DNA of 64,000 nucleotides from an uncultured Clostridia bacterium. GTDB lineage: Bacteria; Bacillota; Clostridia; Christensenellales; UBA1242. A program made the translations under genes and the position numbers. The stretch spans positions 18,023 to 82,022 of the forward strand of contig CAKVGH010000001.1 in NCBI GenBank assembly GCA_934747255.1, read 5' to 3'. Below are positions 9,289 to 22,163 of this stretch, piece by piece. Below the pieces are notes generated by a model. The model ran no database searches and was not told where the DNA came from. It saw nothing but the letters and a program-made list of their open reading frames with translations. The stretch's first letter is position 1; every line of letters begins with the position of its first letter.

Positions 9289-9376
9289 TGGCGGAAGATA
9301 CAGGATTTGAACCTGTGGTGGATTGCTCCACACCTGTTTTCGAGACAGGCACATTCGACCACTCTGACAATCTTCC
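9289..9376 (-). tRNA. tRNA-Ser(CGA), CCA encoded
   Basis: GGAAGATTGTCAGAGTGGTCGAATG..., anticodon loop CTCGAAA, long variable arm, GGTTCAAATCC T-arm. A terminator hairpin lies at about 9258..9285. Confidence 0.85.
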
Positions 9377-9686
9377 GTGTCGCATTTGCAGTATTAAATT
9401 TTTGTAATGATAAACTCTTTATGGTGCTTGATTAAACGATATTTTGTTTAATGAAAATTAAAAGCGAACCAGTAGTTGCAAGCCAAAAAATAAATTTAAT
9501 AATCAAAGATAATTCAAAAAACATACATTGCTTAAAATATCTTTTATGAAAACTTAATGGTTATTTTTTCTTACCTGCAAATTATAATACAATTTTAGCA
9601 AAGTTGCAAGTGTTTTTTTATAATCAAAAATTTGTTAAAAAATATATTGACACGCAAGCAAAAAATGTGTATAATGATAAAGTTTT

Positions 9687-9763
9687 GGTGGAATTGGCGC
9701 AGTTGGCAGCGCACAAGTTTGTGGCACTTGGGGTCAAGAGTTCGAGCCTCTTATTCCACCCCA
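9687..9763 (+). tRNA. tRNA-His(GUG) with G-1, CCA encoded
   Basis: G-1 plus GTGGAAT acceptor pairing with ATTCCAC-C73; anticodon loop TTGTGGC. Confidence 0.85.
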
Positions 9764-9765
9764 TT

Positions 9766-9790
9766 AGCACGGCATTATGCCGTGTTTTTT
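9766..9790 (+). terminator. terminator after tRNA-His
   Basis: CACGGCA-tta-TGCCGTG hairpin followed by TTTTTT. Confidence 0.7.
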
Positions 9791-9963
9791 ATTTCACTTT
9801 TTTTATCATAAAAAAACTTTATTACCTACTACAAGTTTGATAATAAAGTTTTTTTGATTTTAATTACAGCCAGATGGAACAATGGTTTTGTTTTTGTATT
9901 ACTTTGAAAACTGCTATTTCACAGCAAAAAAATCTGGTTTATTTTTCAAATACTCATTAAATA

Positions 9964-10302
9964 TTATAATGCTTCGTACTTTGGTTGAATTTGATTTTTC
10001 TTCAATTCCTTCAAAAACAGCGGAAAATTTTTTTCCAAAGTTCTATCAACAAACTCGTGATTTGAGATAATTGTTGCCTTGCCGTCCTTGATTACGAGTT
10101 GATTAAAGTATTTTTCGTAATACCATTTGTGAGTGTCCATAGAACTCGCAATCTTCTTTAAGCCGTGTCTGTCCATAACTTTTTGAAGCGATGGAAAATA
10201 TGTTACAACGATACTTCCGTCCGGCTTTCTTTCGTGGAACGCATAAAAATCGCCAGCCCCATAATAATTTATAAAAGTTTTAATTTGTTTGTTATTAAGC
10301 AT
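9964..10302 (-). CDS. hypothetical protein (accessory, next to the integrase)
   Basis: AAGGAGAAAT RBS. No family recognised. Confidence 0.35.
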   Translation of the reverse strand: MLNNKQIKTFINYYGAGDFYAFHERKPDGSIVVTYFPSLQKVMDRHGLKKIASSMDTHKWYYEKYFNQLVIKDGKATIISNHEFVDRTLEKNFPLFLKELKKNQIQPKYEAL

Positions 10303-10565
10303 AATAATATTTCTCCTTAACTTTATTTTATCACATAAGTTTTACCAATGCAATACCAACTTAAAAAATTGTGATGATGATTTTTGTAACGCTTGTTTTG
10401 TGTTTTCTAAATTTATTTCAAATATTTTTAATATGTTTTCCAAATTAAACTATCGCTATCTTTGCCAATTTTTTTATAAAAGCACAAAACATTTAATTAA
10501 AATTTCGAAAAACCTTTTAATTGCGTTTTTGCTAAAACTCGCTTTTTTTATAAAAAACTTAAATT

Positions 10566-11840
10566 TTATTGGTTTTTTCGCAATTTTTTTAACATTCTTT
10601 GATATTTTTTAATTTTTGTTATCAATTCTTCTTCAGTAATATTTTCCGATTCTGGTAAAATTTCTTGATTAATATTGTATGTTTGATTGATAAACGAAAA
10701 AGCATTTGAAACCATTTTAGCACTATTTATTTTGCTCTTAAAATCAAGATGCGAATATATATTTGCCGTAGTCGAAAAATTTGAATGTCCTAACCATTCT
10801 TGAATTTGCTTCATTGACACATTTTGTGCCACCATTATACTAGCGCAACTGTGTCTTAAATCATGAAATCGTATATGCTTCAAATTATACTTTTTTTGTA
10901 TATCGTTAAATCCATGTGTCAACCTGCTTGGCGTAATTAAATTGCCCATATTGTCCACACACACATACTCATTGTCAAAATTGTTATACTCATTTCCAAG
11001 CATTTTTTTGTTCCGCTCTATCTCTTGTTGTTTTTCTCTTAATATTGCATCAACCTGCGTAGTCAAAGGCAGTTCTCTATTACTCGATTTTGTTTTGAGA
11101 GTGTTTGATTTGTACAAAACATATTTTCCATTTATTTTTACTTGAATCACTTTATGTTCTATTGCTATTTTTTTATTTTCAAAATCTATCGCACTCCACT
11201 TTAACCCTAAAACTTCACTTCTCCTTAAACCATAAATAGCCGAGAGCATTATCGGCAACTTTAATTCTTCATTTTTTATTAAGTTAAACAAATCTTTCAT
11301 TTCATTTACATTATAGAACTGTCTTTTGATTAGGTTTTCCTTTGGCTTTTCAACTTTATTTATTGGGTTATAAACTAGCCAATCATTTTTAACTGCGTAC
11401 TCAACACATTGATGCAATGTAACATGAATATGTCTTATCGTATTTTTACAAATACCTTCTTGCAATAAATATGAATAAAAACTTTCTATATCAATAGGCA
11501 TAAGCGCTCCCAATGCAACACCTTTTTGTTTGAAGTAAGTAAAAATTTTTTTACCGTACTTTTGATAATTTTCAAAGGTCGATGGTTCTATTTTCATTTT
11601 CTTAATTCCCAACCAAATCATGTAATAATCTCCAAAATTTTCTCCCGCCATTTTGCTATAATTTTTGTTGGAATAATTAGAATTTAATATTAAAATTTCT
11701 TCCAATTTTTGTTTTAATATATGTTCTTCCGTACCTTCTTTTAGGTGCGTGCTTACCCACTTTTGTTTTTTTCTACCGTTTTCTAAAACTGTAAACACGG
11801 CATAGTATGTGCCATTCTTTTTTTGCAAACTACCTTTCAT
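10566..11840 (-). CDS. tyrosine site-specific recombinase (phage-integrase family)
   Basis: C-terminal catalytic block HDLRHSCASIMV...WLGHSNFSTTANIYSHL (R, HxxR, Y); N-terminal KKNGTYYAVF arm-type/SAM-like region. Start refined to MKGSLQKK (GGAGAG RBS). Confidence 0.85.
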   Translation of the reverse strand: MKGSLQKKNGTYYAVFTVLENGRKKQKWVSTHLKEGTEEHILKQKLEEILILNSNYSNKNYSKMAGENFGDYYMIWLGIKKMKIEPSTFENYQKYGKKIFTYFKQKGVALGALMPIDIESFYSYLLQEGICKNTIRHIHVTLHQCVEYAVKNDWLVYNPINKVEKPKENLIKRQFYNVNEMKDLFNLIKNEELKLPIMLSAIYGLRRSEVLGLKWSAIDFENKKIAIEHKVIQVKINGKYVLYKSNTLKTKSSNRELPLTTQVDAILREKQQEIERNKKMLGNEYNNFDNEYVCVDNMGNLITPSRLTHGFNDIQKKYNLKHIRFHDLRHSCASIMVAQNVSMKQIQEWLGHSNFSTTANIYSHLDFKSKINSAKMVSNAFSFINQTYNINQEILPESENITEEELITKIKKYQRMLKKLRKNQ

Positions 11841-11853
11841 CACTACTCTCCAT

Positions 11854-12054
11854 TTACTTTTTTTGATTATTAAAATACTCAAACACATCTTGTTTTGAAA
11901 TAAACATTTTATTTCCACAAAACATTGTTTTGAATTTTTGCTTTTTAATAAAATAGTATGCTTGACTTTTCGTCAGCCCAAAAAGTTCTTGAATGTGCCA
12001 TATTCTTAAAACATCTAAATTTTCAATTATTTCAAAATAATTCATTGATTTCAC
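11854..12054 (-). CDS. excisionase-like / MerR-type HTH DNA-binding protein
   Basis: 66 aa; the ELFGLTKSQAYYFIKK HTH resembles the excisionase-family DNA-binding domain; lies immediately upstream of, and coupled to, the integrase. Confidence 0.55.
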   Translation of the reverse strand: MKSMNYFEIIENLDVLRIWHIQELFGLTKSQAYYFIKKQKFKTMFCGNKMFISKQDVFEYFNNQKK

Positions 12055-12262
12055 CTCCCCCTAAACAAAATTTTACTTCTTTTATAAAATTTTCTTTAGT
12101 GCTTAAAACAGTTTTTAATACTCAAAATGATTATTATAAACCTACTGAAATTCAACACAAATTTCAAATCAAAAAATTCAATGACTTTTTTAGAAAATTA
12201 GAAAAAAATTAGATAAAACACATAAAAAACTCACTATTTTCTGTATTTTTTAACATTTCACC

Positions 12263-12289
12263 AAAGTTTGACAGCAACAGGCGCTTGGT
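12263..12289 (+). repeat. 27-bp inverted-repeat arm A (AAAGTTTGACAGCAACAGGCGCTTGGT), candidate recombination site
   Basis: Perfect reverse complement of 13718..13744. Flanks on both sides are unrelated. Confidence 0.9.
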
Positions 12290-12849
12290 TCACAAGTTCA
12301 AAAGCAGGAACATCTCAAAATATTGATGGTACATTTGGTACAATCAGTATCAATTATGCTGATGGAGAAGCTGCAGCTTGGTCAGCTCTTGATGTAACTG
12401 GCGGAAATGAAAAAGTAATGCCTGGTTCAAGCATTCAACTTAATGGTGGTACAGTTACAAATTCTAGTAATGTTGCTTCTTACATTAAAGTAAGCATTGT
12501 AAATCTAGTTGTAAAAATTGATGATACTGAATTAACTGAAGCTCAAATCAAAGGTTTATTTGGTGTTACTGAAGTTCCTGCATTTGCAGTAACAGCTGGT
12601 GATGGCGTTGAAGCAACATCAAAAGACGGTATTTACAAAGCTAACGCTGGTAAAACTGTTACTTTGAATAATATTAACTTGACTATCGCTAAAGCAGTTA
12701 AAAATGGTACTGCTTTGTCTGCAGATGGTTTAACAGTTAAAGATGGTTCAGTAATTAACTTTACATTCCAAATCAAAGTAGCTGCAGTTCAAGCTGATTA
12801 CATTACTCTTGACGAAGCAGAAACTGTACTTAATGGTTTATTTGCTTAA
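12268..12849 (+). CDS. TasA/camelysin-like fibre subunit body (T1) lacking start context and signal peptide; possible silent cassette
   Basis: Begins at LTATGAWFTSS, the motif that follows the signal peptide in the intact paralogs. The upstream frame has no ATG/GTG/TTG after a TAA and no RBS. Family motifs VMPGSS and VAAVQADYIT. Confidence 0.5.
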   Translation: MTATGAWFTSSKAGTSQNIDGTFGTISINYADGEAAAWSALDVTGGNEKVMPGSSIQLNGGTVTNSSNVASYIKVSIVNLVVKIDDTELTEAQIKGLFGVTEVPAFAVTAGDGVEATSKDGIYKANAGKTVTLNNINLTIAKAVKNGTALSADGLTVKDGSVINFTFQIKVAAVQADYITLDEAETVLNGLFA

Positions 12850-12860
12850 TAGAACATTGT

Positions 12861-12889
12861 AAAAGAACGGTTTAATTCCGTTCTTTTTG
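12861..12889 (+). terminator. terminator after T1 (AGAACGG-tttaatt-CCGTTCT + T-run)
   Basis: Hairpin plus T-run. Near-identical copy at 13137..13165. Confidence 0.7.
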
Positions 12890-12916
12890 TGTTTTTAATA
12901 AGGAAAAGGAGAAAGT

Positions 12917-13150
12917 ATGTTTCAAAAATACAAAGACATAAACGGTGATTCAAATGTTGTTGGATACGAAATTTTAACTGACGGAATAATTATAGAGTTT
13001 GGTGGACATTGGCGTTATTATTATAATTATTCTAGTGCAGGAAAGACTAACATTGAAATTATGAAGCGATTAGCACAACAAGGTGATGGTCTAAACTCTT
13101 TTGTAAAAAGAACAAACCTACCTTATGTATGGAAAAAAAGAACGGGTTAA
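12917..13150 (+). CDS. KTSC-domain-like small protein
   Basis: 77 aa. The VVGYEILTDGIIIEFGGHWRYYYNYSSAG...MKRLAQQGDGLNSFV pattern fits the KTSC fold. Strong AAGGAGAAAGT-ATG RBS. Confidence 0.45.
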   Translation: MFQKYKDINGDSNVVGYEILTDGIIIEFGGHWRYYYNYSSAGKTNIEIMKRLAQQGDGLNSFVKRTNLPYVWKKRTG

Positions 13151-13165
13151 TTCCGTTCTTTTTTT
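13137..13165. terminator. bidirectional terminator between the KTSC gene and T2
   Basis: A-run, then AGAACGG-gttaatt-CCGTTCT, then T-run. Overlaps the KTSC stop codon. Confidence 0.7.
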
Positions 13166-13187
13166 AACTTAATTATTGTATAATCAA

Positions 13188-13754
13188 TTAAGCTGCTTTT
13201 TGAAGATTAAGTGCTGCTGCAGCGGCTGCTTCATCAGCAATGTTTTCAGCTTGGATTGCTTTAACAGAGTAAGCACCAATTGTGAAACTAGCAACTGTTT
13301 GAACTGTTGTTGAATATTCAAGGCTTGTGTTAACTTGATAGAAACCCTCTCCATCTTTTGCACCAATACCAGTACCAGTAACTGCTAAATCAATTACATC
13401 AAATTCAGCTTCAGTTGATCCATTTGTAAGTTTTCTCATTTGAACATATTTTCCGTCAGCATTTACAAGGAATACATAAGCGTCAACAGATGCAATGCTT
13501 TCATCGGCTCCTTTCAATGTTGCTGTAACTTTGAATGTTGTACCATCTGCCTTAATGTAGTCACCAGGCATAACTTCATCATTAGCTACAGTTGTTGTTT
13601 TGTCGCTACGATATGCTTGAATTGTACCAGCTGTTGCCTCCAAACTAATGTCGATCCATCTATCTCTTAATGTAAATGAACCATTATTGTTGCCCTTAGC
13701 ATCGCCACTTGCTGTATACCAAGCGCCTGTTGCTGTCAAACTTTTATTTAACAT
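13188..13754 (-). CDS. TasA/camelysin-like fibre subunit body (T2) with only a 5-codon leader (MLNKS) and no RBS or signal peptide; possible silent cassette
   Basis: MLNKS-LTATGAWYTAS..., motifs VMPGDYIKA and VKAIQAENIADEAA. No Shine-Dalgarno before the ATG. Confidence 0.5.
   Translation of the reverse strand: MLNKSLTATGAWYTASGDAKGNNNGSFTLRDRWIDISLEATAGTIQAYRSDKTTTVANDEVMPGDYIKADGTTFKVTATLKGADESIASVDAYVFLVNADGKYVQMRKLTNGSTEAEFDVIDLAVTGTGIGAKDGEGFYQVNTSLEYSTTVQTVASFTIGAYSVKAIQAENIADEAAAAAALNLQKAA
13718..13744 (-). repeat. 27-bp inverted-repeat arm B
   Basis: Plus strand reads ACCAAGCGCCTGTTGCTGTCAAACTTT, the exact reverse complement of 12263..12289. Confidence 0.9.
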
Positions 13755-13893
13755 TGTTTTAATAGATTTTTTTGCAAATTTGAAAGGCTTATATTTTATA
13801 TATCTTATTACTAAAATAAACTCTTTTTATTGGCACTAATTCTTGTATATATAATACTAGTGTGTTAAAATTCGGGCAACTAGGAGTTATTTT

Positions 13894-15402
13894 ATGGAAA
13901 ATTTAAGTGACAAAAAAATTTTGAGAATGTTTGAAGATAATTCAAATGAAATTGAAAGATTGAGAGAACGAAATAAGACAAATTTGGCAAATATTCAAGA
14001 AGCGATTTCTGAATTACAAGGTTCAACAGTCGATCCCGAGCAGGTGGAGCAACTAGAACAAGATGTCGATTCATTGGAAGAAAGTGTCAACAAAATCAAA
14101 CAACAAATTAGTATACTTCAAGGCGAAGTAGACCCAACTTATAGCGGTAAAACTTACAGTGATTATCCTGCAGGTACAATATTGCAAACTTACGATAAAT
14201 TGGAAAGACAACTTGATATGAATAGTTCCACAGTGCTTACAAGTCCTAAAATTTATTTCTGTACCGAAGCGGGTTCAACTGGAAAAATTAGATTATACAC
14301 AAAATTTAAGCAAACCGTCACAGCCACAAGTGTGTTAATGAAAGTATATCTTAATGGGACGAAGATTGCAGAAGAAACATTTGAAATCATAATGGCAAAC
14401 AATGATGTGCATATTTTAAGAAATTATTTCGACCTAAATTTTAATGCAGACAGCAAAAGTAACTATTTTTACATAACACTAGAAAGTGAAGGAAGTGCAA
14501 ATAGTAATAATATCAATCTTAATGCTTTAACTTTGGAGTTATTTGCCCCAAATGCCGACATTATCACTCGTCCTTGTCCATTTGATGCAGTCTATGCTAA
14601 CGGTAAATATTACCTAACAAACTGCATTGATGGAACCGTAAAAACTGCCGTAATTGATGAAGAAAGTTTTACAAAGGTGGAAGATATTGCTTGGACAAGC
14701 ACAAATATAGTTGCTGAAGAATGTAAAACCACTTTTTCGATGACGATTTTCAATGAAACCTACAAGCCACTTGACCCTTACTATGTGAAACATAAAAATG
14801 ACAAATATTATTTTGGAACACTCGAAAATAATATTGAGTCGTGCGAAATGACTATGGTAATGAATGCGGACCCTGTTTTTTACTCAAACGCAAATCCACA
14901 TTTTATTGTTGCGAGATTTAACAATACATATATGACTCGTGGATATTATAATTTAGCAAATAGCACAAATCAAATGGGGTTTGCTACAGGCGGTAATGTT
15001 GGTAAATTATATATAAGAGTTGGTGGGTTAAAATACAACAACATCAATTATACTACAAAAATGACGCTAGCAAGTGCTATTATTACCGCTGATGGCGAAG
15101 TTCAATTTAGACCAGCACACACAGGTAGTAACAACTTTATTAGTCTTGGCTATGGTAGTGATGTTAGTGTGATTTTAACTTCTTTTACCAACTCAAGCAT
15201 TTTCTCTGTTGCGGTTTTTGTAAAAAGGTTTGATAAAATTATTAGATATGACATAAATGTACAGTATTCGACATACACCATAACAAAAACAACAGAAATC
15301 GGTTCTTACGAAAAAGTATTCTTTATGCCTAATAATGCTTATTTTGCCATAAAAAATAACCAACTATGTTACTACAAAATTCCACTAGAAGCCCGAGAGT
15401 AA
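13894..15402 (+). CDS. coiled-coil stalk + conserved beta-rich head protein (CC1), no signal peptide; paralog of 16644..18818
   Basis: N-terminal heptad region of about 85 aa. Blocks shared with CC2: KTYSDYPAGTILQ, LELFAPNADII, YYLTNCIDGTVKTA, TTEIGSYEKVF. GGAG RBS. Confidence 0.6.
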   Translation: MENLSDKKILRMFEDNSNEIERLRERNKTNLANIQEAISELQGSTVDPEQVEQLEQDVDSLEESVNKIKQQISILQGEVDPTYSGKTYSDYPAGTILQTYDKLERQLDMNSSTVLTSPKIYFCTEAGSTGKIRLYTKFKQTVTATSVLMKVYLNGTKIAEETFEIIMANNDVHILRNYFDLNFNADSKSNYFYITLESEGSANSNNINLNALTLELFAPNADIITRPCPFDAVYANGKYYLTNCIDGTVKTAVIDEESFTKVEDIAWTSTNIVAEECKTTFSMTIFNETYKPLDPYYVKHKNDKYYFGTLENNIESCEMTMVMNADPVFYSNANPHFIVARFNNTYMTRGYYNLANSTNQMGFATGGNVGKLYIRVGGLKYNNINYTTKMTLASAIITADGEVQFRPAHTGSNNFISLGYGSDVSVILTSFTNSSIFSVAVFVKRFDKIIRYDINVQYSTYTITKTTEIGSYEKVFFMPNNAYFAIKNNQLCYYKIPLEARE

Positions 15403-15409
15403 ATATATC

Positions 15410-15443
15410 AAAAACCCTAGCATAATTTTTGCTAGGTTTTTTT
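15410..15443. terminator. terminator between CC1 and T3
   Basis: A-run, CCTAGC-loop-GCTAGG, then TTTTTTT. Confidence 0.7.
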
Positions 15444-15493
15444 AATGATTTTCAATTTTTATAAACAACTTAATATTCCAAGTGAATTTAATT

Positions 15494-16189
15494 TTACATA
15501 CTATCAAGCAATGTTTTTAATTCAGTAAAGGCTTGTGTTGCATTAATGTTGTAATATTGAATAACTGCCACCTTGTATGTATTGCCATTTGAACCGATTG
15601 TGATTAAACCATATTTAGCGCCAAGGGCAGTCAACTTTTTGCCTTGAGCAGAGTTTCCAATGCTACTAGAAGATGTTGACCCATCTAGGCTGTATGTAGT
15701 GCCGTCCACTTGAACTGTTACGACTTCGCCTTTGATAGTTAAAGCATTGGCAGAGCCTTGTTGAATCATTTGTGCTTGTTTGGTTGTTGTCACTTCCGAC
15801 AATGCGCCGTTGGAAACTACATAGTATTTATTTGTAGAATCTAATTTAATCAAATACCAAACCTTGTCCGTATCGGCTGTGCCATCAGCATCATAAGTGA
15901 TTTTAATAGAACTGCTTGTAACTTTGTCGCCCGGCATAATTATGCCCGTACCACCCTTTCGGTCAGTAATAGCTTTGCCATTGGCATCTACATGTTGATA
16001 GCCACCAACATCTATCGCAACTTTACCAAATGTTGCGAACCTAAATTCAGTGGAAGAACCAGGAGTCGATGCACTACTGCTCGAAGTAAACCAAGCACCA
16101 GTGGTGGTTAAAATAACACTCGCTAAAAACAACAATGCAACGCAAAGTATCAAAAAAGATTTATTTGCTTTTGACTTTGATGTTCTCAT
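15494..16189 (-). CDS. TasA/camelysin-like secreted fibre subunit (T3), intact signal peptide
   Basis: MRTSKSKANKSFLILCVALLFLASVILTTTGAWFTSSSS (SipW-type signal pattern), IIMPGDKV, VAVIQYYNI. Start refined to the ATG after AAGGAGAG. Confidence 0.6.
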   Translation of the reverse strand: MRTSKSKANKSFLILCVALLFLASVILTTTGAWFTSSSSASTPGSSTEFRFATFGKVAIDVGGYQHVDANGKAITDRKGGTGIIMPGDKVTSSSIKITYDADGTADTDKVWYLIKLDSTNKYYVVSNGALSEVTTTKQAQMIQQGSANALTIKGEVVTVQVDGTTYSLDGSTSSSSIGNSAQGKKLTALGAKYGLITIGSNGNTYKVAVIQYYNINATQAFTELKTLLDSM

Positions 16190-16643
16190 CTGCTCTCCTT
16201 TTTGGTTCAAGCCCAATTCCATTTGTAAATATTATATATAATATTTATTTGTTTGTAAAACAAAAATAGCCCTAAATTAAAATTTGTAAACCATTTTTTT
16301 AGTTAAATTTTACTAAATTTTTGAAACAAAAAACAGTACCATCATTTGAATACACTTGATTTTTTTTATAAAAATACAAAGTTGTCTAATATCACACGCA
16401 TAGCATTTAATAATAGTTGTATATTTATAATATAAGTGAAACACTGTATCATTTTTCACAAACCTAGTTAATTAGATTTATTAAGGATTTTTTCTTAAAA
16501 CTTTTATTCTGCTGATAGAACTTATTGTAAAAATGTTGAAATTTGCTATTTATTGAAAGTTAGTATCAATAAAAATTTTGGCACAGATTATTGAAATTCT
16601 CGGTTTTTTATGCTTAAAATGTTAAAAATTTTAGGAGAAAATT

Positions 16644-18818
16644 ATGGAAGAAACAAAACTACAACGAATTTTAATGGAACTGCGAACCGACCTTGATATG
16701 CTACTTGAAAGGTATTACAGCGGAGCAACTAAGGAGATGCAAGAGAAATTGAGTAGTCTTTCCACATTGGTTACAGAACTTCAAACAAAAGTCGACACTC
16801 TTGATAGCGACAACACCACGAACAAAACCGATATAGAAAGCATTAAGGCAGATATAGTAAATATTAAGTCGCAGTGCGAAGAATTTACCACCAATATAAC
16901 AAATCTTCAATCATCAGTAACGCAAAATACAAGCGATATTGCCGATTTAACAACTAGGGTAACCACCGCCGAAACCGACATTGACGACCTGCAAACACTC
17001 ACTGCTTCGCACACCGAAACTCTTAATGACCATTGGGACAAAATGATGATTCTATTAGCAGAAGAAATAAGTATGACAACAAAAATGTCAAACGCCGAAG
17101 AACGAATTACTGCACTAGAAAATAGTTCCGCAACTGGCAATCCGGAAATCAGCAAAGCAGATATAACAGCCCTGCAAACACAGGTTGATGCACTTGAAAC
17201 CGAAGTCGATAGCCTATCAACCAAGGTTACCACAAACACGACTAACATTGCCGATTTGACCAGCAAAGTTAATACTAATACAACTAATATTGCCACCAAC
17301 ACCGCCGACATTGCCACACTAAAAACAACCACCGAAAATATCACATCAACTGTGAGTGAACTGCAAACAACTGTTGCAACTAACACACAAAATATCAGCA
17401 ATTTGCAATCAACGATTAGCACAAACACAACAAATATTCAAACCAACGCTGATAACATTAGTACATTGCAATCGCAGGTTAATACCAACACTGAAAATAT
17501 CGCAACAACCACCGCAAACATTGCTACTAACACAGCAAATATAGCAACAAATACGACCAATATTGCAACTCTTATGGCTTTTAGAGACAGTTTACTTACA
17601 CCAACAGACCCATTTTACAACCCAAAAACTTTTAGCGATTATCCAGCAGGTACAATTTTGCAAGGCTATGCAAAGTATAGTAGAAAATATCATTTAGTAA
17701 TGAATACTCTAAAGACTCCAACTGTCTTATTTACTGCAGAACTGGGTTCAAGTGGTAAAATATTTTTTAGAATAAAATTTTCATCAACTATAACATTCAA
17801 TGGCACTATTAACTTGTACCAAAATGGCAATTTAGTTTATCAAGAACAATACTCATTTAATAACACTAGTAAAGAATTCGATTTAGAAAGAACTGTCAAC
17901 GGTTTAACATTACAACAATCGAATTTATTTTACTTGCAAATAAACTCAAATAATACTCTTCAATATACATTAACATTCTATGAGTTACAATTGCTTGCTC
18001 CCAATGCAGAAATTGTTAATTCAATTTCACCTTTTAATGTTGAGTACTTTGAAAACAAATATTACATTAGCGATTGTAGTAGTGGAATAGCAAAAATTGC
18101 CGAAATAAATGTTACTGATATGCATAATATGGATAATTTGAGTTGGACCAATACAGGAATTGAATGTTTAACATACAAAACAACATTTGATACTAAAAAA
18201 TTTGCAGATACTTACGCGCCAAATAAAAGAATCGACTATTATCAAAAAGCAGATACAAAAATATACTTTGAGAATAAGTTAAATAATGAAATATCAAATA
18301 CGCAAGAATTTTGTAACCTTGATTGGATTCCAGTCAATGAATCTACTACTTACTTTACAGCTATTTTTAAGAATAGTTTTGCACTGACAAATGCCACATA
18401 TTACTCGATGTTTAATTATGTAAATTCTACAAATAAACCATATTATTTTACAACAGGGGCTCGTTATTTACAACCTTATAATGATTTCGTTTCAAGGAGA
18501 TTTATTATATATACAAAAGAGACTGGAGAGAATTTCATAAAAAGACTAGATTCATACACTAATTTTTCTCTAAATATTGGCTTAGGAACAAATATTCATT
18601 TTTATTATAAATCATATAATGATGATATAATTTTATTTGATTGCTATATGAAATATTATGATAAAATAATTAAAAAAACAATCTCATTTACAAATACTAA
18701 TGGGTTTTCTATAACTTCTTCTACGGAAATAGGTGCTTATGAAGAATATTTTGAAGGTGCAAACAATGATTACTTTGTTGTTAGAGCAGGCAAACTAGAA
18801 TATCACAAAAAACAATAA
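16644..18818 (+). CDS. long trimeric-type coiled-coil stalk + conserved beta-rich head protein (CC2), no signal peptide
   Basis: About 300 aa of heptads including runs of TNTxNIA (the IxxNTxx pattern). The head is paralogous to CC1: KTFSDYPAGTILQ, LQLLAPNAEIV, YYISDCSSGIAKIA, STEIGAYEEYF. Confidence 0.6.
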   Translation: MEETKLQRILMELRTDLDMLLERYYSGATKEMQEKLSSLSTLVTELQTKVDTLDSDNTTNKTDIESIKADIVNIKSQCEEFTTNITNLQSSVTQNTSDIADLTTRVTTAETDIDDLQTLTASHTETLNDHWDKMMILLAEEISMTTKMSNAEERITALENSSATGNPEISKADITALQTQVDALETEVDSLSTKVTTNTTNIADLTSKVNTNTTNIATNTADIATLKTTTENITSTVSELQTTVATNTQNISNLQSTISTNTTNIQTNADNISTLQSQVNTNTENIATTTANIATNTANIATNTTNIATLMAFRDSLLTPTDPFYNPKTFSDYPAGTILQGYAKYSRKYHLVMNTLKTPTVLFTAELGSSGKIFFRIKFSSTITFNGTINLYQNGNLVYQEQYSFNNTSKEFDLERTVNGLTLQQSNLFYLQINSNNTLQYTLTFYELQLLAPNAEIVNSISPFNVEYFENKYYISDCSSGIAKIAEINVTDMHNMDNLSWTNTGIECLTYKTTFDTKKFADTYAPNKRIDYYQKADTKIYFENKLNNEISNTQEFCNLDWIPVNESTTYFTAIFKNSFALTNATYYSMFNYVNSTNKPYYFTTGARYLQPYNDFVSRRFIIYTKETGENFIKRLDSYTNFSLNIGLGTNIHFYYKSYNDDIILFDCYMKYYDKIIKKTISFTNTNGFSITSSTEIGAYEEYFEGANNDYFVVRAGKLEYHKKQ

Positions 18819-18821
18819 AAC

Positions 18822-18851
18822 AAAAAACAACTCATAAAGAGTTGTTTTTTT
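18822..18851. terminator. bidirectional terminator between CC2 and T4
   Basis: A-run, CAACTC-ataaa-GAGTTG, then TTTTTTT. Confidence 0.75.
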
Positions 18852-18876
18852 GTACATAATACTAATTACCTAATAA

Positions 18877-19515
18877 TTAAGCAATTACAATTGCTTCAAG
18901 CAATGGCTTTGCAGCTTCAGCTGTCAAGTTGTTAGCTTGGATTGTCTTAACTTGGATACCTTGTCCTTGGAAGTTAAGAGAGAATGTACCAGTTACATCG
19001 CCATAATTTAGGCTTGTTTTAACTGTGTATACATCGCCTGCAATATCAAATTTATCAACAGCACCTGTTACAGCACGATTACCTTCTGTAGCAAGAACGA
19101 TTGCATCGCCTGCATCAGAATATGTTACTTCTGACCAATTTGCGCCACCATCTACTGATACAATGTAGTAGAAAGCTACTTTAGAATTAGCTGTAATTGT
19201 TGCCTTTGCACCTTGTGTAAATGTTACTTTATCGCCAGGAAGTACAACATAAGCTCCTGCTTCATTTGTAGCGCAGTCTTCTGAACCTACACCTTTTGGA
19301 CTTGTTGTTACTTTAACTGTGTTAGTTGCACCTGCATTTACTGTAAGTGTCATCCAATCACTCATAACAAAGTCAACTTTTCCACCTTGGCCATCTTGTT
19401 TAGATGAACTTGTGTACCAAGCACCTGTTGCTGTCAAAATCATGCTTAAGCAAAGCAAGATGCTTAAAAGAACGATAGCAACTGTTGATTTTCTCATTTT
19501 CTTTGAGTTTACCAT
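18877..19515 (-). CDS. TasA/camelysin-like secreted fibre subunit (T4), intact RBS and signal peptide
   Basis: AAGGAGAAAAACAA-ATG; MVNSKKMRKSTVAIVLLSILLCLSMILTATGAWYTSSSK; VVLPGDKVTF; VKTIQANNLTAEAA. Confidence 0.65.
   Translation of the reverse strand: MVNSKKMRKSTVAIVLLSILLCLSMILTATGAWYTSSSKQDGQGGKVDFVMSDWMTLTVNAGATNTVKVTTSPKGVGSEDCATNEAGAYVVLPGDKVTFTQGAKATITANSKVAFYYIVSVDGGANWSEVTYSDAGDAIVLATEGNRAVTGAVDKFDIAGDVYTVKTSLNYGDVTGTFSLNFQGQGIQVKTIQANNLTAEAAKPLLEAIVIA
19405..19438 (-). repeat. third copy of the candidate crossover site, inside intact T4
   Basis: The T4 coding strand reads TTTGACAGCAACAGGtGCTTGGTaCACAAGTTCA. This matches 12267..12300 at 32 of 34 nt, and matches 22 of the last 23 nt (TTTGAC...GGT) of the 27-bp core. 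Confidence 0.85.
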
Positions 19516-19844
19516 TTTGTTTTTCTCCTTTTTTTATTTTATTTTATTTACAACCTTTCGTTATAAACATTCATAGTATAATAAACGGCAAAATTAAAGG
19601 CAAATATTTTTAACCACTTTTTCAAAATTTTTTTATTTTTTTTGTTTTTTTTGGTTTGTCGCAATTTGTCAAAGGTTTTTGGGCAAAAATGTTTTAACAT
19701 TTTTTTGATATATAATGTTTTAATCTATATAATATATATTTATATATAATAATACAGCCTTTTGAAAGTTTTTTGGGCAAAATTTTGCAAGTATCAAAAA
19801 AGACAAGGCAAAAAATTTTATTTGTGGTAAAATGTCTTAAACAA

Positions 19845-22163
19845 ATGAAAAAAATAATAAATTATAGACCGCTACTGGCTTTGTTTTTGGGATTGTGTAT
19901 AGGTACAACTTGTGCCTGTGCTATTTTTAATATCAATTCTGCCAACTTTGTGGACTATTGTGTTATTATTGGTGTGCTTATTTTAACAACTTCCCTGCTC
20001 CTACTAATGAAAGGCGAAAAACATTTATCTTACTTAAAAATGGGAATAACGCTTTTACTATCAATAATACTTGGAGTATGCCTTGTGTTTGGGGTTGTTG
20101 GAAAAAAGATTAGCGACACGGAAAGAGTTTTTGACGAAGTGGGCAGAAACTCGGTTCATACCACAATTGAAGCGAGAGTTTGTTCCACCATACTCGATGG
20201 CGGGAAACTATCGGCAGTGCTGGGCAATGTAAAATTAAACGGAAAATCTTACGGCAAAATGAAAATTAAAATTTCGTTTGGCGACAGCAAAGTGACTGTT
20301 GGCGATAATTTATCTTTTGAAGCAGTAATTTTTAGCAATGAAGTTATAGCCGAAACAATCAACACAAAAATGATGTTTGACAATATTTACTACTATGGTT
20401 ATGCCAGCGGAAGCGAGATTGTTTGCACAAAAAACAATGCAAACTTAATCGAAAGAGTCCGCATTAAAACCGACAACACCTTAAAAGAAAGTTGTGACGA
20501 AAACTACGGAATCTTAAAAGCCTTGCTACTAGGCGACAAAAGTGATATGGAGCAAGACACCTACGAAAACTATAAGTTGAGTGGACTGGCTCACATACTA
20601 TCAATTTCGGGCTTACATATTGGCTTTATAGCAATGATGATATACTTTTTGCTAAAAAAACTCAAAGCCAACACCAAAGTGCAATTTTTTGTTACAGCAA
20701 TACTTTTGCTACTATACTGTGCGTTATGCGGGTTTATTAGTTCGGTTGTAAGAGCCACGATTATGAGCATTTGCCTAATGCTAGCAAATGTAATTGGCGA
20801 ACGAAACGACCATATTTCCAGTTTGAGTTTAGCGGGCATAATACTACTATTTATCAACCCTATTTATGTAATAGACATTGGTTTTCAACTATCATTTTTA
20901 TCGGTGTTTGGCATACTTGTATTTGCTAGGTCGATAACAAAATTCTTTGTTAAAATTCACTTGCCAAACTTTATTGCAAGCAGTTTTGCAGTGACATTAT
21001 CAGCAACAATTTTAACACTCCCAGTTTTAATCAAAACTTTTGGGTATATTTCGCCAATAAGCCTAATTGCCAATCTTGTAATACTACCATTATTCTCAAT
21101 ATTTTTTAGCATACTGTTTATAGCATTTTTAATTAACTTAATCATACCGATTGGCTTTATGTTTTCGTTTTTATCTACCATATTTAGTTGCATTAGCGCA
21201 GTGACAACTGTTTTAGCCAAAGCGGGCGTTATTAAAACGGACTTTTCGCCAGTACTATCAACATTCGCCTACTACACATTTTTACTACTTGCAAGCAGAC
21301 TTAATATGTCAAACAAACTATTAAAACAATGTATGTGCATTATATGTGCGGTGGTTTGCGTTGCCTTTTCGGTTGACGAAATTATCAGGAGCAACTACAA
21401 CTTTCACGAGTATTTTTCGGTAATCAAGACCGTTGAAAACTCGTGTATGATACAAGCACGCAGTGGCAATAACACGCTTGTTTACGCAAGCAACGATAAT
21501 AGTTACGACTTTGAAAATTTGAGTTCGCATTTCAAAAACTTTTTGATTAGAAAAGTTCATACAATAATCGTTCCAAACTACACACCAGAACAAAACGAAG
21601 TGATAATAAAACTCATCGAAAAGTATAAAACTGATACTTTGTTTTTGCCTGCCAGCGAAAAAGAAAATAGTTCACTTTTATATTCAAAACTTGGCAAAGT
21701 GGTTAGAATACGATATGACGATTTTTACTATCTAGCAATCGACAAAGTTTACAGGTTAAAGGGCTTTAAGATTGACGGAAAAGTAAGGGCTTACTGGGTG
21801 GAATATTCCGATGGACCATATTACGAAGAACCATTGTTTGACTACGAGTTAATGCAAAAAGTAAAGGAAGCAAGAGTACTAGTTTTGTGTGACAAGTTAA
21901 CTCTTAATCAAACCGACAAATTGATTGAATTACTTGGCTATATTAACTACTACGACCCTATTCGGTATGTGTTATCAAATGATTACAACGAATCACTGAA
22001 AAAACTAATTGCATTTGACAAAATTGGTATTACAGATGTTATAATAAAAAACACAAAAAAACTTTCGGTGGAGCAACAGGCGTATATCGACAGTCTTGAT
22101 GGCGTAAAATTAAATAACAAATATTGGCTAGACTTTAATTATAGGAGAACAAAATTGATATGA
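19845..22163 (+). CDS. comEC: ComEC/Rec2 DNA-internalisation channel protein (C-terminal metallo-beta-lactamase motifs degenerate)
   Basis: Hallmark LSGLAHILSISGLHIGF and a polytopic core. Start refined to MKKIINYRP. Synteny with holA. Confidence 0.8.
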   Translation: MKKIINYRPLLALFLGLCIGTTCACAIFNINSANFVDYCVIIGVLILTTSLLLLMKGEKHLSYLKMGITLLLSIILGVCLVFGVVGKKISDTERVFDEVGRNSVHTTIEARVCSTILDGGKLSAVLGNVKLNGKSYGKMKIKISFGDSKVTVGDNLSFEAVIFSNEVIAETINTKMMFDNIYYYGYASGSEIVCTKNNANLIERVRIKTDNTLKESCDENYGILKALLLGDKSDMEQDTYENYKLSGLAHILSISGLHIGFIAMMIYFLLKKLKANTKVQFFVTAILLLLYCALCGFISSVVRATIMSICLMLANVIGERNDHISSLSLAGIILLFINPIYVIDIGFQLSFLSVFGILVFARSITKFFVKIHLPNFIASSFAVTLSATILTLPVLIKTFGYISPISLIANLVILPLFSIFFSILFIAFLINLIIPIGFMFSFLSTIFSCISAVTTVLAKAGVIKTDFSPVLSTFAYYTFLLLASRLNMSNKLLKQCMCIICAVVCVAFSVDEIIRSNYNFHEYFSVIKTVENSCMIQARSGNNTLVYASNDNSYDFENLSSHFKNFLIRKVHTIIVPNYTPEQNEVIIKLIEKYKTDTLFLPASEKENSSLLYSKLGKVVRIRYDDFYYLAIDKVYRLKGFKIDGKVRAYWVEYSDGPYYEEPLFDYELMQKVKEARVLVLCDKLTLNQTDKLIELLGYINYYDPIRYVLSNDYNESLKKLIAFDKIGITDVIIKNTKKLSVEQQAYIDSLDGVKLNNKYWLDFNYRRTKLI

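Follow-up and report, generated by a model that had tools for sequence, protein, structure and literature searches.

Why does a single gene cluster of an uncultured gut bacterium carry the same short sequence three times, once inside an intact gene for a predicted secreted protein and twice at the start of related reading frames that have no signal peptide? The cluster lies in a 64,000-nucleotide (nt) stretch of DNA, hereafter the window (contig CAKVGH010000001.1 of GenBank assembly GCA_934747255.1, positions 18,023 to 82,022 of the forward strand), from a member of the Clostridia (Christensenellales, UBA1242), and it includes four paralogous genes, T1 to T4. A preliminary description of the window had proposed that the third copy of the repeated sequence, located inside T4, might be an expression site for nested inversions. 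Our analysis points strongly to this answer: the region 12263-19438 is very probably a three-site, four-state multiple-inversion system, or shufflon, that swaps the bodies of a secreted protein.

The 34-nt sequence that spans the signal-peptide/mature junction of T4, TTTGACAGCAACAGGTGCTTGGTACACAAGTTCA, lies on the minus strand at 19405-19438 with 0 mismatches and recurs at the T1 junction, on the plus strand at 12267-12300, with 2 mismatches. The match of 32 of 34 nt given in the preliminary description is thereby confirmed, and 0 chance matches to this 34-mer are expected from 100 dinucleotide-preserving shuffles. A third copy is present at the T2 junction (13713-13744, minus strand). The window contains exactly three copies of a 22-nt core, TTGACAGCAACAGGYGCTTGGT: one on the plus strand at 12268-12289 and two on the minus strand, at 13718-13739 and 19416-19437. 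Their strands bear out the earlier statement that the T4 site stands in inverted orientation to the T1 site and in direct orientation to the T2 site. A single locus, 12263-19438, thus holds three copies of one short site in both orientations, as a shufflon should. We refer to the copies as R, on the recombinase side (12263-12300, plus); M, a second silent copy named for the MLNKS stub that precedes it (13713-13744, minus); and E, the expression site on the comEC side (19405-19438, minus), which lies within the expressed gene and encodes LTATGAWYTSS. All three contain the 15-nt core TTTGACAGCAACAGG (R, 12267-12281; M, 13740-13726; E, 19438-19424), which is also the longest exact run that E shares with R or M; the longest run common to R and M is 27 nt.

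The genes at these sites differ in what precedes the shared motif. T4 (18877-19515, minus) has a ribosome-binding site (RBS), AAAGGAGAAAAACAAAATG (AAAGGAGA..ATG), and a hydrophobic leader, MVNSKKMRKSTVAIVLLSILLCLSMI, followed by LTATGAW, in agreement with the strong RBS and full signal peptide previously ascribed to it. The T4 body (18877-19404, minus) occupies the expression site in the window, and the leader coding sequence (19515-19439), the RBS and the upstream region make up a constant expression module at 19439-19610 on the minus strand. A promoter may lie within this upstream region, where 19603-19575 gives a weak sigma-70-like match. T1 (12268-12849, plus) starts directly at LTATGAW with neither RBS nor leader upstream, and T2 (13188-13754, minus) has just MLNKS ahead of LTATGAW and no signal peptide; both are body cassettes that are probably silent in the arrangement of the window. 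T3 (15494-16189, minus) has its own RBS and leader and presumably its own promoter, and all nine members of its cluster retain that leader. Its peptide LTTTGAWF is nearly that of the site, yet without nucleotide identity: the 15-nt core has 5 mismatches in T3 (TTTAACCACCACTGG versus TTTGACAGCAACAGG), the only common stretch is GGTGCTTGGT, and T3 was never found recombined. It is therefore best regarded as a fixed paralogue, as first proposed, and as a passive passenger of the invertible segment.

If the sites recombine, a defined set of fusion proteins should exist. The proteins predicted by the inversion model were built and searched for as exact sequences in a collection of about 15 billion proteins, and the contigs encoding them, all of them consensus assemblies, were retrieved and aligned to the window. 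The T4 leader fused to the T1 body, a protein of 219 residues, is present as an exact match (P0005), as is MLNKS fused to the T1 body (P0004, a cluster representative for which nine contigs are listed). The T4 leader fused to the T2 body is present as two near-identical alleles (P0008 and P0012) on at least eight contigs, the leaderless T4 body is present beside the recombinase (P0003, contig L025), and the leaderless T2 body is found in a recombinase-proximal context (P0009 and P0011). Thus, one 26-residue leader is joined in frame to the T4, T1 and T2 bodies in public data (P0001, P0005 and P0008). The only predicted chimera absent from this look-up is MLNKS fused to the T4 body, and this is also the junction, M|T4, that inversion cannot reach.

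The contigs place these fusions in rearranged DNA. Contig L008 (745 bp) joins window positions 19584-19405 to 12267-12865 at 98.9% and 100% identity, and L025 carries the reciprocal junction, 9304-12300 joined to 19438-17783, so that the recombinase is followed by the T4 body and the gene for a 724-residue protein. Together with P0005, these contigs substantiate the proposal that a roughly 7.1-kb inversion between the T1 and T4 sites fuses the T4 leader to the T1 body. Contigs L026 and L027 join 10513-12297 to 13744-12849 at 99.8-100% identity, which is a simple flip of the T1-T2 block. The 38-kb contig L001 (assembled with k=141) consists of window positions 29502-19411, then 13740-12263, then 13707-19421, at 98.5-98.8% identity; with comEC as the reference, the block with T3 and the genes for the 502- and 724-residue proteins is flipped in this contig, and the T1-T2 block, having been inverted twice, keeps its orientation, as two nested inversions would give. 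The same structure is found in L002, L003, L004 and L014, and with the two T2 alleles it bears out the further proposal that the T2 body reaches the T4 leader after a prior T1/T2 flip. Contigs L018-L022 have the arrangement of the window and are 100% identical to it, and the alternative-arrangement contigs are overall 98-100% identical, with breakpoints exactly in the repeats: R for all R junctions, M in L001-L004, L014, L026 and L027, and E for every E junction. The alternative arrangements that a comparison of strains was meant to look for, in which the T4 leader precedes the T1 or the T2 body, are therefore present in public assemblies.

Inversion can act only between inverted sites, which leaves exactly four reachable states, and all four are observed, including reciprocal junctions. 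S0, the arrangement of the window and L018, has T4 at E, T2 at M and T1 at R. S1 (E:T4, M:T1, R:T2) is seen through the R|T2 junction of L026 and L027, S2 (E:T1, M:T2, R:T4) through the E|T1 junction of L008, and S3 (E:T2, M:T1, R:T4) in L001 and similar contigs; the R|T4 junction of L025 is compatible with S2 or S3. The crossover can be placed within the site. A C/T polymorphism in GG[C/T]GC and an F/Y codon always travel with the body, C with T1 and T2 and T with T4, so the exchange must lie 5′ to the polymorphic base, either inside TTTGACAGCAACAGG or at its edge. One natural variant touches the site directly: in L119 (1863-1900) and L120, a 21-bp in-frame deletion, GACAGCAACAGGCGCTTGGTA, corresponding to window 13719-13739, removes the M-site core and turns MLNKS-LTATGAWY-TAS into MLNKS-F-TAS while the R site is intact. 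With the M core deleted, T2 should be locked out of the shufflon in these two samples, a natural 'locked' variant. Three contigs come from Hadza samples recorded as hadza-I-L_K_3, K_7 and K_21, and their junctions differ: R|T2 in L026, R|T1 plus the loss of the M core in L119, and M|T1 in L012. Should the shared 'K' stand for a single host, these differences would represent within-host variation.

Taken together, these observations suggest a mechanism in which one constant module beside comEC, comprising a promoter region, an RBS and a 26-residue signal peptide at site E, would be fused in frame, at the sequence encoding LTATGAW, to the T4, T1 or T2 body of a secreted TasA/camelysin-like protein. 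At any time two bodies would be stored leaderless, one at R beside a tyrosine recombinase and one at M behind the five-codon stub. Switching would proceed by conservative site-specific recombination between inverted sites, with the exchange inside the 15-nt core TTTGACAGCAACAGG, and would flip either the 1.5-kb T1-T2 block or the entire 7.1-kb segment, the large flip carrying T3 and the genes for the 502- and 724-residue proteins passively. Under this mechanism only the body at E would be expressed and secreted, switching may be frequent within a clone, and the likely purpose would be to vary a surface or extracellular protein of a gut commensal in its antigenicity or function.

Which enzyme could catalyse these inversions? 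A tyrosine recombinase gene of the phage-integrase type (10566-11840, minus) encodes 424 residues counted from M27 of a 450-residue open reading frame (ORF). The protein matches Pfam Phage_integrase (PF00589, 1.1e-26, residues 204-393) and Phage_int_SAM_5, as well as the PHROG integrase family phrog_1 (5.4e-61), and its catalytic box FHDLRHS conforms to the H-x-L-R-H pattern of tyrosine recombinases. Among NCBIfam models it meets generic Xer, integron-integrase and FimB-like 'tyrosine-type DNA invertase' models only, all far below their cut-offs. The gene lies about 430 bp from R and adjoins R in every contig that reaches it (L018, L025-L027 and L119), and a simple motif scan found no other recombinase signature in the listed ORFs of the window. 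From this adjacency, we consider it rather likely that the integrase is the invertase. Directly upstream of it is a small ORF of 63-66 residues (11854-12054, minus), called as a 63-residue gene in all related contigs and 97% conserved in L037; it has no Pfam, NCBIfam or PHROG match and possibly encodes an accessory protein of the Xis or helix-turn-helix type. Beyond the recombinase gene are a tRNA-Ser (9289-9376), a tRNA-His (9688-9763) and a 112-residue ORF with no assigned function (9964-10302), a layout typical of integrase-bearing islands. A search for signs of a tRNA-inserted element gave nothing: no meaningful att-like repeat of at least 13 nt of the tRNA-His or tRNA-Ser ends occurs elsewhere in the window.

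Relatives of the locus show how far the arrangement extends. A scan of GTDB genomes with the family profile returned four loci in three metagenome-assembled genomes (MAGs; labelled Christensenellales, 'Eubacteriales' and 'Clostridia'), and the window's own genome was not recovered. In two related MAGs, a single T gene lies near genes that neighbour the locus in the window, with neither recombinase nor leaderless cassette in the flanks; one (L031) keeps the order holA-comEC-T, and the other (L030) has the end of holA and other window neighbours. A further single T gene lies amid housekeeping genes (L033). The recombinase and the leaderless cassettes are thus both present here and both absent from these single-copy relatives. 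Leaderless family members also occur in other lineages (P0084 on L037, P0115 and P0201), and L037 has the inverted arrangement with a different T4-type cassette, indicating that cassette inversion is not confined to one strain; the contigs of P0115 and P0201 are too short to reveal a recombinase. In one Christensenellales MAG, two contigs (L028, 4022-5092, and L029, 4442-5683) have an upstream region and leader that are 95-97% identical and downstream sequence that is 90% identical, with different T bodies between them; either two paralogous loci or a further variable locus, assembled in alternative ways, could account for them.

Could the third copy of the site exist merely because paralogues conserve the region where the signal peptide is cleaved, without T4 ever recombining? 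The preliminary description had itself raised this possibility, in the form of the same 34 nt being conserved in TasA-like genes at loci that lack a recombinase, and part of it stands: single-copy relatives in other species, which lack a recombinase in the vicinity, retain 25-26 of the 34 nt, and DNA identity between species is about 82% over the whole leader. This partial conservation can be attributed to the fact that the stretch encodes LTATGAWF. What does not stand is its sufficiency, since leaderless cassettes that keep 32-34 of 34 nt, together with rearranged junctions, occur only in this species, T3 preserves the peptide motif without sharing the nucleotides or recombining, and in chimeric proteins and junction contigs the T4 leader is attached to the bodies of T1 and T2, and the T4 body to the flank of the recombinase. 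Coding conservation is refuted by these chimeras, and we regard it as extremely unlikely. Nor does it seem credible that the alternative junctions are assembly chimeras made at the repeat. Repeats can misjoin short-read contigs, but the exact run that E shares with R and M is just 15 nt, much shorter than the 141-mers on which the k141 assemblies rest and shorter too than the k-mers in common use for assembly, so that each junction requires reads that truly span it. Independent assemblies from different pipelines (MEGAHIT-style k141, SPAdes-style NODE, Logan and 'MERR22' scaffolds) repeat the same junctions, these come in reciprocal pairs, and the 5.7 kb of intervening genes has the predicted flipped orientation; on these grounds an artefact was rejected, and we leave it practically no weight. 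A subtler alternative is that the rearrangements are real but rare, produced by RecA-type or illegitimate recombination at short repeats and fixed historically in individual strains. It accords with the single arrangement seen in each assembly, with the failure to find a sample with two incompatible junctions, and with the roughly 1.5% difference between S3 contigs and the window, which marks them as different strains. Nevertheless, we consider it improbable, given that four states have their breakpoints in the same 15-27 nt among sequences that are 98-100% identical, that a dedicated recombinase gene abuts the locus, that the leaderless cassettes are maintained with intact reading frames, and that L001 terminates inside a site, as a branching assembly graph would give. 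Fifteen nucleotides of identity is very short for RecA-dependent exchange. The near-identity of the S1 contigs to the S0 window (99.8-100%; the S2 contig, 98.9-100%) also speaks against old, fixed rearrangements and is suggestive, though only suggestive, of ongoing switching.

The identity of the enzyme leaves more room for doubt. Site-specific inversion could be carried out by an unlinked recombinase, with the adjacent integrase and small ORF being the remnant of a mobile element near tRNA-His, and we give this a minor but appreciable chance. Global invertases that act at distant sites are known, RecV of C. difficile being an example (PMC7446863), and the adjacent protein is phage-type, with two tRNA genes just beyond it. 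Against an unlinked enzyme stand the absence from the rest of the window of a direct repeat of at least 13 nt of the tRNA end, the constant position of the recombinase within about 430 bp of R in all strains, its joint presence and absence with the leaderless cassettes, and the motif scan of the window's ORFs, which yielded no second candidate. Several observations weigh against a shufflon driven by the adjacent integrase and must be set beside the evidence in its favour. The recombinase looks like an ordinary phage or mobile-element integrase near tRNA-His, and its nearest relatives in a metagenome scan, at about 42% identity, belong to 80 loci with no T cassettes in their flanks. Visual inspection found no obvious dyad symmetry in the site. 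In this species the E|T1 and R|T4 junctions are represented by a single contig each, although the two are mutually reciprocal and the protein look-up is exact, and all of the evidence comes from consensus assemblies of different samples, each with one arrangement. A promoter scan performed no better than shuffles in this AT-rich DNA (40 matches versus 38.3 expected). Finally, in states S0 and S1 the E and M sites are directly repeated, which would permit a deletion between them; no E-M deletion product was found among the fetched contigs, few of which span both sites. The shufflon remains, in our judgement, the reading that the junctions favour.

If the locus is a shufflon, what does it vary? 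T1 to T4 have no match in Pfam, NCBIfam or PHROGs. Their homologues share a near-invariant 35-residue N-terminus, MVNSKKMSKSTVAIVLLSLLLVLSLILTATGAWFT, followed by bodies that are about 30% identical and contain conserved MPGD and C-terminal IQAxN motifs. A family profile search of 1.84 billion representatives gave 747 relatives, of which 141 were scanned against family models: 28 match Pfam Peptidase_M73 (camelysin/TasA; best 9.7e-07), 20 match TIGR04088, the SipW-dependent-type signal peptide (best 3.7e-05), and the TasA and BsaA models have single matches. One relative (P0171) scores 23.9 bits against the Peptidase_M73 cut-off of 22.5, and another (P0159), at 22.2 bits, spans positions 6-191 of the 196 in the model. 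Through these weak matches, transitive homology makes it reasonable to view the T proteins as a divergent TasA/camelysin (Peptidase_M73) branch with a SipW-type signal motif. They resemble TasA and camelysin in a hydrophobic leader that ends in TGAWFT(D/S), similar to the SipW-cognate motif, and in small beta-rich bodies, which here carry a PGD motif; they differ in that the four window proteins match neither Peptidase_M73 nor TIGR04088. Two AlphaFold models (predicted local distance difference test scores of 69.9 and 79.3) show a beta-sandwich with a C-terminal helix. A Foldseek search of the Protein Data Bank (PDB) with both models, whose quality limits the comparison, gave nothing at E <= 0.001 and no TasA in the top 50, and a profile search of PDB sequences with two alignments (A1 and A2) returned no TasA, just a spurious acyl-CoA dehydrogenase match. 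A simple motif search of the window found no SipW-like peptidase with a GSMxP-type motif.

The invertible segment also contains genes other than the cassettes. A terminator-like hairpin follows T1 (12861-12888, plus), and a near-identical copy (13135-13163) follows T2 and a 77-residue ORF (12917-13150, plus) that lies between the two cassettes and flips with both. These two 28-nt hairpins with GC stems, 96% identical, bracket the 77-residue ORF and would act as terminators for the T1 and T2 cassettes. The 77-residue protein has weak matches to internal segments of PHROG virion-structural families (1.1e-15 and 6.5e-13). Convergent to T3 is the gene for a 502-residue coiled-coil protein (13894-15402, plus), which lies inside the 7.1-kb segment; its orientation with respect to comEC is the same in the window and L018 and reversed in L001 and L002. 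Convergent to the T4 body is the gene for a 724-residue coiled-coil protein (16644-18818, plus), which is still beside the T4 body after inversion in L025 and L037.

This pairing is a recurring feature of the family. Complete T genes are each followed by a convergent gene for a protein of 500-740 residues with an N-terminal coiled coil and a common C-terminal domain, with no signal peptide or family match, and the pairing recurs in other species with and without a shufflon (besides the two window genes, L030 7971-9404 and L031 12253-13560; also L032, L035, L036 and L037). Contig L037 has a T4-type body and a partner that are both divergent (about 36% and 63% identity, respectively), and its T3 and 502-residue gene are 98-99% identical; this pattern suggests that a T body and its convergent coiled-coil partner co-vary. 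The coiled-coil genes also vary in length. At window ~17500-17530, within the 724-residue gene, the otherwise 100% identical L018 has an indel in TN(T/A)xNI-rich coiled-coil repeats and encodes 710 residues, and in L011 the gene is split into parts of 229 and 485 residues, which indicates that the length of the repeat region varies between strains. Two irregularities of the contigs deserve mention. In L004 (1-861; also in L016), the match to the window upstream of the E module ends at 20074, inside comEC, and the sequence beyond this breakpoint encodes a 271-residue protein with a prepilin-type N_methyl domain; the departure could be a structural variant or a misjoin. In three assemblies, contigs L011, L012 and L013 all end at window 13242, within the T2 body, roughly 55 nt from its 3′ end and near a repeat (D8, 13225-13265) that is 76% similar to the T4 3′ end at 18911-18951. 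Co-existing T2 alleles or another branch point could explain this common end.

A system of this kind has consequences for how such genomes are read. The replacement of whole bodies suggests strong diversifying pressure on the T protein, whether from host immunity, from phage or through adhesion specificity. In MAG annotation, leaderless cassettes are called as odd TTG-start genes, and in MAG assembly, one long contig ends inside a site and near-identical strains differ in the order of their genes. With three sites, four states and a 15-nt core, the system is small and could become a compact tool if the recombinase is confirmed.

How does this locus compare with inversion systems that are already known? 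The mechanism itself, an expression site and silent cassettes exchanged by site-specific inversion, is established. The closest parallel in design is the vsa locus of Mycoplasma pulmonis, in which inversions at vrs sites by HvsR put the expression site before the 3′ part of silent, 5′-truncated genes, and a tyrosine recombinase gene lies near the locus (PMC2268961, citing Bhugra 1995, Shen 2000 and Sitaraman 2002). The expression site, the 5′-truncated silent cassettes and the nearby tyrosine recombinase in that account all have counterparts in the Clostridia locus. In contrast, the vsa host is a mollicute rather than a spore-forming gut Clostridia member, the constant part of vsa is given there as 714 nt and here is a 26-residue signal peptide, and vsa varies lipoproteins with tandem repeats, whereas the proteins varied here are secreted and TasA/camelysin-like. 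Moreover, the present system has only three sites and four states, and its recombinase is phage-integrase-like.

The shufflon of R64 and other IncI plasmids, in which Rci acts at sfx sites to vary the PilV tip adhesin, is similar (PMC5430464 and PMC11852207) in having several short sites of mixed orientation, a constant N-terminal segment with interchangeable C-terminal segments, an adjacent tyrosine recombinase, and a varied product that is a surface or extracellular fibre-associated protein. It differs in being plasmid-borne and directed at a type IV pilin, whereas the locus described here is chromosomal and its target is not a type IV pilin. In addition, the crossover here falls where signal peptide and mature protein meet, three complete genes, unrelated or paralogous, ride on the invertible DNA, and the recombinase has only generic integrase/Xer-type model matches. 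Gene-altering programmed inversions more broadly (PMC9881135), including the hsdS shufflons of S. pneumoniae (ivr/PsrA; PMC4948785 and PMC7096588), resemble this locus in combining an intact gene with truncated, pseudogene-like cassettes in inverted orientation and with a recombinase close by, and the size asymmetry between gene and cassette that Milman et al. (2023, NAR; PMC9881135) used as a predictor is matched here. The target families listed in that study comprise HsdS, phage tail proteins, SusC/RagA, PilV, Type II restriction-modification systems and some DUF proteins, and a search of that text for TasA, camelysin or signal peptide gave no hit; in contrast to those systems, the entire mature domain of a secreted protein is swapped here.

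As far as the literature found allows, the new elements are therefore the target family, the host group of uncultured gut Clostridia and the position of the crossover, which falls within the signal-peptide motif; nothing relevant was found that links TasA-family variation, SipW or camelysin with DNA inversion. A bolder interpretation, which we advance tentatively and would not yet call probable, is that this is the first shufflon whose target is an extracellular protein of the TasA/camelysin type, a fibre or matrix component with a SipW signal, in which a phage-type integrase and a small Xis-like partner were domesticated as an invertase and the crossover was built into the cleavage motif; the T proteins and their coiled-coil partners would then form an undescribed, antigenically variable surface structure that inverts its cassettes in some lineages and is fixed in others. 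In either case, the comparison suggests that uncultured, spore-forming gut Clostridia may vary an extracellular protein much as mycoplasmas vary Vsa and IncI plasmids vary PilV.

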